Source: an uncultured Chthonomonadaceae bacterium (GTDB taxonomy: Bacteria; Armatimonadota; Chthonomonadetes; Chthonomonadales; Chthonomonadaceae). From it: a stretch of DNA of 64,000 nt. Position numbers: made by a program. Shown here piece by piece: positions 30,001 to 33,000 of the stretch. Each line of letters starts with the position of its first letter. The stretch's first letter is position 1. The stretch is taken from assembly GCA_963817895.1 (NCBI GenBank), contig CAWFQB010000001.1, positions 1,504,001 to 1,568,000 on the forward strand. Reading direction: 5' to 3'.

Positions 30001-33000
30001 GTATGGCGAAAACAGCGCGTTGGGCGAGTATGCCGTCAACACGCTGTTTACCATGCTGTGGATAGAAACCGCGAGTGAGCGTCTTGCCGTCGCCTGCGCC
30101 CTGAGCGACTCGCTTCCCCTGCCCGACAAAGGGGATGCGTCTCCGTTCGCGGCCCGTTTGTGCTATCGGGTTCAGGCTCCCGCCGCCGACCCATTAGCCG
30201 TTCCCCCGCTTTCGCCCCTGCTGCCGCCGAAGGGCGCGAAACTGCGGGAGTGGGCCGAACAGACGCTGCTGGCGATTTTTACGGACGCGCTGAACACAAT
30301 CAAACTGATGTTACGGCAAACACCGCCTGCCGCCGCCAACGCGCTGTATGTCGAAACCGATGTTTGCCATGCCGCGCTGCGTTTAGCGCCGCGCTTGAAA
30401 TCGCCCGCTCTCGTAGAAGCGACCCTGCGGCTGCTGCGGATGTTTCCTCCCGATCTCGCGCGTGAAACCGGCCCCTTCGGACGCCAAACGCCGGAACTGC
30501 GCTCCCTCGCGTCCCTCTACCTCGCCGCGCTGTCCCCTGATGATCTGTATCCGTTATGGGTGGGGCTGAACGGCTCTGACGCAAACCTGCGCCAGAGCCT
30601 GCTGCCCGTTCTGGACTATCTCAATGACCCTCGCGTGGTCTCCTATTTAATTAAAATGCTGGAGCGGCACAGCCAGTGGGCGGATGGCGACCTGGCGGCG
30701 TGGGCTGCGGTTCGCGCCCTGCAGCGATTGCGGGACCGCCGCGCCCTGCCGGTTCTGCGCCGCCTGGTCGCCATGTCAGAACGCGCCGCTGCCACTGCCT
30801 CGCCAACGCGCGCCACCTCCGCCCTCAATCCCGCGCTCATTCAGGCCGCCCGCCGCGCCATTGAATCCATCGAGCATCAGCGCCAGCCCAAAGAACACTC
30901 GTTTCTGCTGCGCCCCTCCCAACCCGATACCACGCGCCTGCTGCGCCCCGCCGAATCAATCCCCGACAGCGACGCGAACCACGCGGAACTGCTACGCTCG
31001 GACGGGGAAGAAGAGGAGAAAAGGAGAAGAGGAGAAGAGGAGACAGGAAAACAGGGAAATTGAACAGCAAAGATGCGAAAACGCTTGCAGTTCTTTTTCT
31101 CCTTTTCTCCTTTTCTCCTTATTCTCCTCTTCTTCCCATTACGCCGCTTTGAGCAGGGGCAGGCCCTCGCGTTCGCCGTTTGCTTCCGCGCAGGCGAGGC
31201 GGGAAAGCGGTTCGGACTGGCGGAAGTCGCGGGGAAAGACCGCGCTGCCGACGCCGAATCTCACAAGTGGTTTTAAGCCCTGCCAGCCCTTTTCCGACAG
31301 CCAACTGCCCAGGTTCTGCTCGATGCGGCGCGTGACGACATCCACGCTTTCCCCGGTAAACGGCAGAATGCAAGCGAATGTCTGCTCGTCGTAGCGGGTG
31401 AGTATGTCCACGCGGCGCATGCTGCGGCGCAGAATGTCCGAGGTTCCCGTCAGCGCCTCATCCCGCTTCAGCGTTCCCTGCGTTCGCGCCAGATTTGCCA
31501 GCCCCTCCAGACGGACGAAGATGACCGACATATCCGTACCCGTGCGACTGGCGCGGCTCACCTCCTCCTGCAAACGGTTGTCGTAGTAGCGGCGATTGTA
31601 CAGGCGCGTCAGATCATCCACAATCGGCGTCTGGTCTATCTGCGCCTGCTGCGTCTCCAATCGCTGCCGCATGTGCGTCAAGTGTAGTTGTGAAGTCCGC
31701 AGTTCGTCCGTATTCAGGATGTTCTTTAGTTTTTTGGTCGCGTTGCGCAGGATATGCGATACATAATTGCAGGAAATGCCCATTTGCCGGGCGATTTCGG
31801 TCTGGTTCAGGTCCTTGAAATAAAAGGCGAACAGGACGTGCTGTTCCAGTTCCTTTAGTTTGAGCATCGCGGTTTCCAGCACGATGCGATCTTCCACCGG
31901 CAACTGGAAACTGGTGGAGGGGTCGCTGCGCTGTTTGCGGTCTATGTCAACCGTGTTGCCGCTGTCCTCCTCGCTGTCCGTGCCGCCGTCAATGCTCGAT
32001 ACCTTGAACACTTCGCGCGTCATCATGAGGTCCGTGACCGCCTCTTCAGTCATGTCCATCATGCGTGCGATTTCAAGATTGGTGGGCGGGCGGCTCAACT
32101 GTTGGCCGAGCGCGGCTATGGCGCGCGTCATGCGCTGGTTCAGTTCCTGCAACCAGGCAGGCTCCTTGATGATTTTGCCCCGGTCGCGCAGGCAGTGCTT
32201 GATCTGTCCAATGATAAAGTGCGTTGCGTATGTGGAGAACTTGACTTTTTTCGCCGGGTCGTACAGGTCTATGGCTGTCAGCAGGCCGATGTAGCCCTCC
32301 TGCGCCAGATCCTCCACGGGTTCGGAAGCCCCGGCAAATCGCCGCGCGATGCTTTCCACCAGATTGGCGTACTGCGCGACAAGCCGTTCTCTCGCTTTCG
32401 GGTCGTGTTTTTGGCGATATGTCAGCAACAACGCCGCCGTATTCTCCTCCTGACGTTTGCGCGTCATGGCAATATCAGGGGTCGTCATGTCCCGTGTCTG
32501 AAATTGATTTGCTATCGGCATTGCTCCCTGTTGGACGCGCGCCTTCGTTCCCATCGTACGCGACGCGCCCCTGGCTTTCTTTGACCCCGCAATTCATCCG
32601 TGCTTGCGAAGACGGATTGATTATTGCCAGAAGTGGGAAGCGGCTAGAGACCTGCCGCGAATTCCGATTCTTTAGCCGTATTTTCACTCTCTTTTGCTTC
32701 AAATTCCGAATTCCGAACACCGAACGCCGTTTTTTTCTGGTAGAATGAAGCAGAACGCTTAAAGTTAAATTAAGTATTCCTGCGGGCTGATACGAGGAGG
32801 GCGCGAAATATACGCTTGCTTCTCCCGCAACAAAACCGGACGCCCCTTTGCCGCGTAGTGTCTTACGCGCTTGCGCGTATTCTGTTTGGGTTTGGCGCGT
32901 TTGTGTTTGACGCGCATGTGCATCGGCGCAATTTCCGCCAGGTTATAGCCATACAGGGTTCTCCCCGGCGCAGGGTTTCCATACTCGAACCCGCGTCCCG

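Follow-up and report, generated by a model that had tools for sequence, protein, structure and literature searches.

A conserved fusion of a sigma factor with a degenerate GGDEF domain in Armatimonadota, a candidate c-di-GMP-sensing sigma factor

Can a sigma factor carry its own receptor for c-di-GMP? The question is raised by a gene at 31139..32521 (minus strand, as for all features given below) of the window, that is, the whole stretch of 64,000 nucleotides of an uncultured Chthonomonadaceae genome that was analysed. The gene is an uninterrupted ORF of 460 aa, and its homologs match it in length and in the region of the start. An initial annotation had described a SigB/F-type sigma factor and a degenerate GGDEF domain in one gene, and this is borne out by the Pfam matches to sigma regions 2, 3 and 4 and to GGDEF, all within the single ORF. 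The companion statement, that the best 120 homologs all combine the two parts, also held, with Pfam hits for both in 120/120; because both domain sets occur in all of them, the fusion is not an assembly artefact.

The sigma part begins with region 2 (aa 47-116, 32174..32383, PF04542), whose core-binding and -10 recognition residues are conserved and in which region 2.4 is of the GqIkHyLRD type across homologs. It is followed by region 3 (aa 126-192, 31946..32146, PF04539) and by region 4 (aa 218-266, 31724..31870, PF04545), a helix-turn-helix with the conserved recognition helix IScNYvShiLR. Then comes a linker helix (aa 267-297, 31631..31723), predicted to extend the final helix of region 4 without a break as far as the D-x-L-T turn that belongs to the degenerate GGDEF domain (aa 301-445, 31187..31621, PF00990). 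The Pfam match to the latter spans aa 301-439 (E 2e-19) and its fold matches that of the cyclase 4urg (TM 0.80 by target); the best solved match of the sigma part is the S. aureus SigB chain 8x6g_H. No single solved chain among those listed covers both halves, each of which is matched separately. The predicted structure, built on a 62-row alignment, has an overall pLDDT of 87, with 83-97 for the helix 251-297 that connects region 4.2 to the GGDEF domain; the C-terminal tail is predicted to be disordered (pLDDT < 50). The linker measures 23-38 residues across the homologs of a 164-sequence alignment, in which a strict coiled-coil register was rejected for lack of clean heptad steps.

The class of the sigma factor was assigned by model ranking and by layout. 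SigBFG (TIGR02980) ranks first of 101 NCBIfam models, as the initial annotation had noted, but its 178.6 bits lie below the curated cut-off of 234.35, so that the assignment is a ranking and not a full match. The runner-up is PRK07408, the model of cyanobacterial SigF, with 160 bits and also below its cut-off, and the FliA/WhiG model TIGR02479 reaches 114.6 bits against a cut-off of 189.6; in the tree, too, the fused sigma is separate from the FliA-like sigmas of the genome, which also encodes an unfused SigB-like paralog and other FliA/WhiG paralogs. The presence of regions 2, 3 and 4 and the absence of region 1.1 give the layout of SigB, SigF and SigG, and region 3 sets the protein apart from the ECF sigmas, which have regions 2 and 4 only. 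Among 11 recurring annotated neighbours there is no anti-sigma of the RsbW/SpoIIAB kind; HATPase_c_2 matches occur elsewhere in the genome. The N-terminal part is best read as a functional sigma factor of group 3 whose ancestor was a "pilus sigma" without the fused domain.

The GGDEF half has lost the residues of catalysis. For conservation, 328 fused sequences were reduced to 164 at less than 70% identity, and none of these (0/164) has an intact GG(D/E)EF motif. Here the motif is replaced by the loop DEQTF (aa 378-382, 31376..31390), as placed by alignments with solved cyclases; the annotation had rightly seen the replacement but had read it as YDEQT, one residue out of register, since Y377 is the residue that precedes the motif. 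The metal-binding Asp column, said there to be variable, is R337 in this protein and Asp in just 15/164 homologs, and the substrate-residue positions (K/N/D/H, 342-350) are variable or gapped.

The residues of the inhibitory site (I-site) have fared quite differently from this decayed centre. The primary site comprises R369-x-x-D372 (31406..31417), which aligns to the RxxD that was mutated to AxxA in the DgcR structures, and R399 (31325..31327), the equivalent of PleD R390. The secondary site comprises R323, equivalent to PleD R313 and located on helix alpha0, and R326, equivalent to DgcR R163 (31544..31555; alignment mapping and bioRxiv 10.1101/2020.08.28.271692). The correspondence of R323, R369, D372 and R399 to PleD 313, 359, 362 and 390 follows from the alignment offset, with the position of the PleD gap inferred from neighbouring alignments. 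D372 (161/164), R369 (157/164), R399 (156/164) and R323 (155/164) are the four most conserved columns of the whole domain, at 95-98% versus a median top-residue frequency of 35% over the GGDEF columns of the non-redundant homologs; all four occur together in 145/164, and R326 is kept in 130/164. The annotated invariance of R369 and D372 was recovered among the best 120 homologs (both 120/120). A further conserved patch, E319/E320/R316, is seen in the same 164-homolog alignment. As a control, RxxD was found in 14 of 15 intact cyclases checked; thus the I-site is inherited, and the informative part is its retention after catalysis was lost.

In the DgcR study, a dimer of c-di-GMP cross-links RxxD (plus R390 in PleD) with R313 or R163 of a partner GGDEF domain, and the secondary-site arginines are described as mattering solely for such cross-linking (bioRxiv 10.1101/2020.08.28.271692). 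The retained secondary I-site therefore implies dimer cross-linking, and a c-di-GMP-bridged sigma dimer is reasonably likely on these alignments. That the protein binds c-di-GMP through the I-site at all is very probable from the conserved residues. The genome has 23 GGDEF matches, at least 12 of them with intact catalytic motifs, and one EAL gene. With both I-sites retained, the catalytic positions decayed, the sigma part intact and at least 12 intact cyclases in the genome, the proposal of a candidate c-di-GMP-sensing sigma factor has gained in substance.

The fusion is far more widespread than was first thought. The earlier range of 24/120 other genomes of the phylum was too narrow, as a match to both domains was found in at least 130 of 200, from 30 of the 38 families sampled (62-row profile, genomes at least 90% complete, hand count among the 150 matches listed, with 313 weaker ones besides), which upholds the claim of conservation across Armatimonadota among the matches listed. 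Twelve genomes with middling profile scores were inspected and have an unfused paralog alone. Family f32 has a sigma-only form which is nested inside the fused clade in the tree, indicating secondary loss of the GGDEF domain. Such loss does not track loss of c-di-GMP synthesis, since both f32 and L154, which lacks the I-site, still encode cyclase-like GGDEF proteins. The fused form was not found in 41 Vulcanimicrobiota genomes, where unfused relatives are present, one of them after pilT-pilC. The range outside the phylum, left open by the annotation, could be addressed in the sequences searched, most of whose database representatives have no taxon: no fusion was found beyond Armatimonadota. 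Two records labelled Actinomycetota (L109 and L131) both nest among Armatimonadota sequences in the tree, and the genome of L109 was shown to fall in the same phylum as the window. As far as their taxon is known, the members of the three closest Atlas clusters belong mostly to Armatimonadota, and of 10 distant clusters three are named and two have a taxon, in both cases Armatimonadota. A weak search for longer fused forms found none.

Beyond the GGDEF domain lies a tail of 8-42 residues in the homologs, and here it ends in Ala-Ala (31142..31147), a putative ClpXP-type degron on a disordered segment. Ala-Ala is terminal in 119 of 120 near homologs while the residues before it vary, and of 77 stop-closed ORFs taken from genome loci 74 end in AA and three in VA; the background is 1.6%, with 62 such ends among the 3871 long ORFs in the genome. 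Family-wide the dipeptide occurs in 98/164 homologs and marks one clade (99/97 support, 17/18 rows). The genome encodes ClpX, with a match over the cut-off, and its tmRNA tag ends in LAA. There is a precedent in sigma-AntA, an orphan sigma factor degraded by ClpXP via a C-terminal Ala-Ala (PMC7142297). For the one clade that has the free, conserved dipeptide, turnover of the fused sigma by ClpXP is thus predicted with good confidence.

What turns the gene on? A sigma28/WhiG-like promoter lies upstream at 32620..32650, with a -35 box of the (C)CTAAAG type (32644-32650), a 15-nt spacer and the -10 box GGCAATAAT (32620-32628), and the motif CCTAAAG-N15-GGCAATAAT recurs upstream of stand-alone copies, in 32 of 39 regions. 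It shares its -35 box and its spacing with a motif upstream of flgB (12/26 regions), and these also agree with the WhiG2 consensus T(A/C)AA-N16-GCCGATAA as reported in PMC12871210. The motif is absent upstream of the gene in the three fusion-bearing genomes without FliA/WhiG that were tested (G023, G062 and G013), and a variant is present in one tested genome that has FliA/WhiG. A sigma70-type promoter was sought upstream of the fusion gene and none was found. Accordingly, the idea that the fused sigma reads its own upstream promoter is not supported, as the motif follows FliA/WhiG and not the fusion, although autoregulation could still occur. Most likely, judging from these motifs, the fusion gene is the target of a sigma28 (FliA/WhiG) in this order.

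Between promoter and start codon, in about 25 loci of the order, there is a leader hairpin with a fixed GAUGGG loop (32537..32568, about 15 nt before the start codon). Its stem shows compensatory changes, with both sides changed in 8 of 10 pairs over 20 loci, and its covariation is 0.42, where shuffles give 0.18 and slid controls no more than 0.19, a difference that related sequences can inflate. An Rfam search of the hairpin matched no family. The genome has a CsrA-like ORF, by pattern match only; a CsrA site in the hairpin would be a guess.

The gene context points to pili and flagella. A pilC homolog lies upstream in 33/81 loci, alongside pilT/pilB and a secretin, and also in most of the more distant loci; the copy in the window has no pilC neighbour and stands alone. 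Since PilT is encoded in 69/69 genomes, co-occurrence with it is uninformative. For flagella, FlhA is present in 13/14 fusion-bearing versus 0/9 fusion-less genomes of the window's order, and six fusion-less genomes of the order that were tested all lack FliA/WhiG. Control of the gene by a sigma28 would also explain its co-loss with flagella. Over the phylum, FlhA was found in 30/32 fusion-bearing genomes and strongly in 8/36 fusion-less genomes tested, and FlgB in 25/30 fusion-bearing ones, in genome sets that were chosen by hand and contain kin that are not independent. Outside the window's order the flagellar link is loose.

The targets of the fused sigma may include pilin genes. The fused gene is directly followed by a short pilin gene in families f26, f22 and f19, and TCTCAAA-N-RTGGAATAA, a SigB/F-like promoter element, lies upstream of that pilin. 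TGGAATA occurs upstream in 10 of 30 pilin-like loci fetched, many of the others being inside operons, and a box TCTCAAA-N-RTGGAA(T/G)A(A/C) in 12 of 13 pilin loci hand-picked from these 30, including that of the FliA-less G062. This box resembles the -10 elements reported for cyanobacterial SigF (GGTAA, PMC2532724) and SigJ (GGGaAtacT, PMC6495340); in Nostoc, SigF is described as having a tiny regulon centred on pilA and as being itself under another sigma (PMC6495340). When run against the present genome, the pilin box gave 34 matches versus 13-18 in shuffled sequence, none of them before a pilin, and as a genome-wide pattern it does not discriminate, with 27/58 genomes positive, fusion-less ones included, and most non-pilin matches inside ORFs. 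A role for pilin as a target is, on these sequence grounds, a proposition with an even chance of being right; the unfused SigB-like paralog could read the box instead.

Taken together, the best explanation of the whole, encompassing the fusion, the dead catalysis, the selective retention of the I-site, the Ala-Ala, the conserved promoter and hairpin and the gene context, is a one-protein switch for the transcription of motility appendages, to which we give about equal weight for and against. In the window's order, a sigma28 (FliA/WhiG) promoter would turn the gene on, and the fused sigma would then transcribe the gene of the major pilin together with a few motility genes. Dimeric c-di-GMP would be bound by the dead GGDEF domains of two chains, by R369/D372/R399 in one and R323/R326 in the other, so that two sigma molecules become cross-linked. 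As the linker runs on from the final helix of region 4, such a dimer could not seat properly on core polymerase, and the sigma would be off at high c-di-GMP. In one large subclade, Ala-Ala would make the sigma a short-lived ClpXP substrate, replacing an anti-sigma. A fuller version, in which cross-linking through the I-sites decides both polymerase loading and the access of ClpXP to the Ala-Ala tail, with the hairpin adding translational control, is rather doubtful; one polypeptide would then combine the roles otherwise divided among PopA, CtrA and an anti-sigma. The variable linker length (23-38) argues against tight mechanical coupling, and so do the cyclases kept in lineages that lack the GGDEF domain or the I-site.

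The sign of the response is the point at which a serious rival arises. Sigma factors act on polymerase as monomers, so that a dimer held together by cross-links would more readily be inactive than active. Among described cases, c-di-GMP turns off flagellar genes under FleQ (PMC12564702) as well as WhiG (PMC8325347), and the co-loss with flagella and the sigma28-type promoter tie the gene to the motile state. An inhibitory effect of c-di-GMP is therefore somewhat favoured. Alternatively, c-di-GMP might activate the sigma or make it more stable, for instance if the Ala-Ala tail became buried or a GGDEF-mediated autoinhibition were released, so that pilin and adhesion genes would be on in the surface-attached, high-c-di-GMP state. 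The I-site and the degron are equally compatible with this, the tail is attached directly to the GGDEF domain, and the genomic home of the fusion is a pilus operon and not a flagellar cluster; moreover, the sigma28-like regulon of this genome takes in a number of GGDEF genes as well as a c-di-GMP-I riboswitch that precedes flgM, and could raise c-di-GMP once the fused sigma has been made. This opposite sign is possible, though we consider it the less probable.

A further explanation is that the GGDEF remnant serves as a docking or folding module, or as the receptor of another cyclic dinucleotide, and does not sense c-di-GMP. D372 and its neighbours are conserved in most GGDEF domains, the E319/E320/R316 patch is conserved as well, and loss of the domain does not follow loss of cyclases. 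The closest solved sequence to the GGDEF part is the Geobacter GGDEF 6d9m, a cGAMP-making enzyme. However, each residue of the conserved set has its match in the two-part pocket known to bind c-di-GMP, and of the six full-length homologs that lost R369 five are also altered at R323 or D372/R399, which makes this explanation unlikely. About as weak is the proposal that the fused sigma is itself a master flagellar regulator, reading CTAAAG-N15-GGCAATAAT promoters before its own gene, fliA and pilB so that c-di-GMP would stop the flagellar cascade at the top as with FleQ/FlrA: it would fit the near-perfect co-loss with FlhA in the window's order, the GGCAATA-type boxes before these three genes here where structural flagellar genes have NCCRAYAA, and the sigma28-like promoters of early genes such as flgB, which a FlgM-inhibited FliA would hardly be first to fire, but it is quite improbable given that the motif is missing in the fusion-bearing, FliA-less G023, G062 and G013, that a genome scan with it gave 54 matches versus 27-38 in shuffles, that flagellated fusion-less genomes exist (8/36), that other FliA/WhiG paralogs can serve the early genes and that the fused sigma does not group with FliA.

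Several known systems come close to the proposed switch. Caulobacter PopA and Pseudomonas PelD likewise combine a dead active site with a kept RxxD I-site, and PopA ties c-di-GMP to ClpXP degradation of the transcription regulator CtrA (PMC12564702, PMC10333796); the fusion protein has the RxxD and the R390 equivalent of such receptors, from which binding is predicted. PopA, as described there, is a separate REC-REC-GGDEF adaptor, whereas the fusion unites sensor, transcription factor and degron in one chain with a sigma output. Like the fusion, the RsiG-(c-di-GMP)2-WhiG complex of Actinomycetota places a sigma under c-di-GMP (PMC8325347), and in Rubrobacter the output of RsiG-WhiG is type IV pili (PMC12871210). 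There, as reported, a distinct anti-sigma is armed by the ligand by way of a coiled-coil motif, and the sigma it controls is of the sigma28 kind, in contrast to a SigB/F-type sigma with a GGDEF domain of its own. Streptomyces sigma-AntA, an orphan sigma factor, shares the C-terminal Ala-Ala (conserved in 67/71 orthologs) and is degraded by ClpXP, as is predicted for the fusion; it is described as an ECF sigma, however, which lacks region 3 and has no domain that senses a ligand (PMC7142297). Cyanobacterial SigF/SigJ come close through the second-best NCBIfam model, a small pilA-centred regulon under another sigma, such as the one proposed here, and a -10 box similar to that before the pilins (PMC2532724, PMC6495340); they differ by having no fused sensor or degron and another region 4.2 and -35 box. 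Finally, in ECF41, ECF42, ECF56 and ECF238 a fused C-terminal domain also replaces an anti-sigma, but these sigmas belong to group 4 and their tails are of the SnoaL, TPR or Cys-rich kind, and the main texts of the two papers concerned mention neither GGDEF nor c-di-GMP (PMC7826278, PMC8999054).

A literature search found no paper that joins sigma factor, GGDEF and Armatimonadota, and no title or opening of an abstract that deals with a fusion of this kind, the ECF census supplement and subscription journals being outside its scope. The fusion family is real and conserved and apparently undescribed, a new combination of known parts. To the initial annotation the present analysis adds the secondary I-site, the Ala-Ala, the promoter with the hairpin, and the connection with pili and flagella. 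In the cases described, c-di-GMP controls sigma factors via a separate anti-sigma (RsiG) or via activators (FleQ, FlrA). If the proposed reading is true, a sigma with its own receptor would link second messenger and promoter choice within a single component, would be the first sigma factor to which a nucleotide second messenger binds directly, and would set the pilus and flagellum programme across most of a phylum. It may also be of use as a compact c-di-GMP-responsive transcription part. Armatimonadota are common but have been little studied, and the fusion, which occurs in roughly two thirds of their sampled genomes, offers a first handle on the control of pili and flagella in the phylum.

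Upstream of flgB, a sigma28-like promoter, the type that also precedes the fused sigma gene, is present in 12 of 26 regions (loci L189-L213 and, in the source genome G000, contig C1 at 959447), and four other regions among the same 26 carry a sigma54-like TGGCAC-N5-TTGC box. Because flgB has promoters of the first type in some regions and of the second in others, the flagellar hierarchy seems to be rewired within the phylum. In G000, the sigma28-like motif also lies before an rpoN-like ORF, named by eye (C14:82609), and before several GGDEF genes (C2:725064, C7:129449, C10:170384, and C6:81707).

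A c-di-GMP-I riboswitch (73.5 bits) is located between a sigma28-like promoter and flgM of G000 (C1:712159-714078, L155), with an EAL gene immediately upstream, and this arrangement suggests that c-di-GMP may control the anti-sigma28 factor at the RNA level. Two weak c-di-GMP-I riboswitch-like matches with long inserts flank a gene for a small secreted protein (C5:793817-794832; L156, L157). Across the same genome, a near-identical prepilin leader of the FTLIELLVVIAIIAILAAILFPVF type occurs on 64 ORFs, and many motility genes (flhA, one fliA, pilC, flgE, and a flagellin) are split by frameshifts, which are probably sequencing indels.

In the window, a HEAT-repeat gene (29774-31063, + strand) is convergent with the sigma gene, and its homologs lie downstream of the fused sigma gene in 8 of 81 loci. 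An ECF sigma factor gene with a zf-HC2 anti-sigma-like gene behind it (25173-27234, - strand), both recognized by domain matches, has no relation to the sigma-GGDEF fusion. The window also contains an Eco57I-type DNA methylase (21821-23803, + strand) and a Ro60/TROVE gene apparently split across two frames (40571-42030, - strand). The loop sequence of the sigma gene's leader hairpin recurs at a 90-aa ORF (G000 C1:1004302, - strand), directly upstream of its ribosome-binding site, but the lower stem is absent there.

Among the homologs of the fused sigma factor, long variants of family f6 (P0189, P0222, and L159-L161) have a GGDEF domain so eroded that Pfam no longer detects it, whereas R369 of the I-site has been lost from six full-length proteins (L154, P0170, P0178, P0186, P0193, and P0207). 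Together, these two groups provide natural controls for c-di-GMP binding tests.
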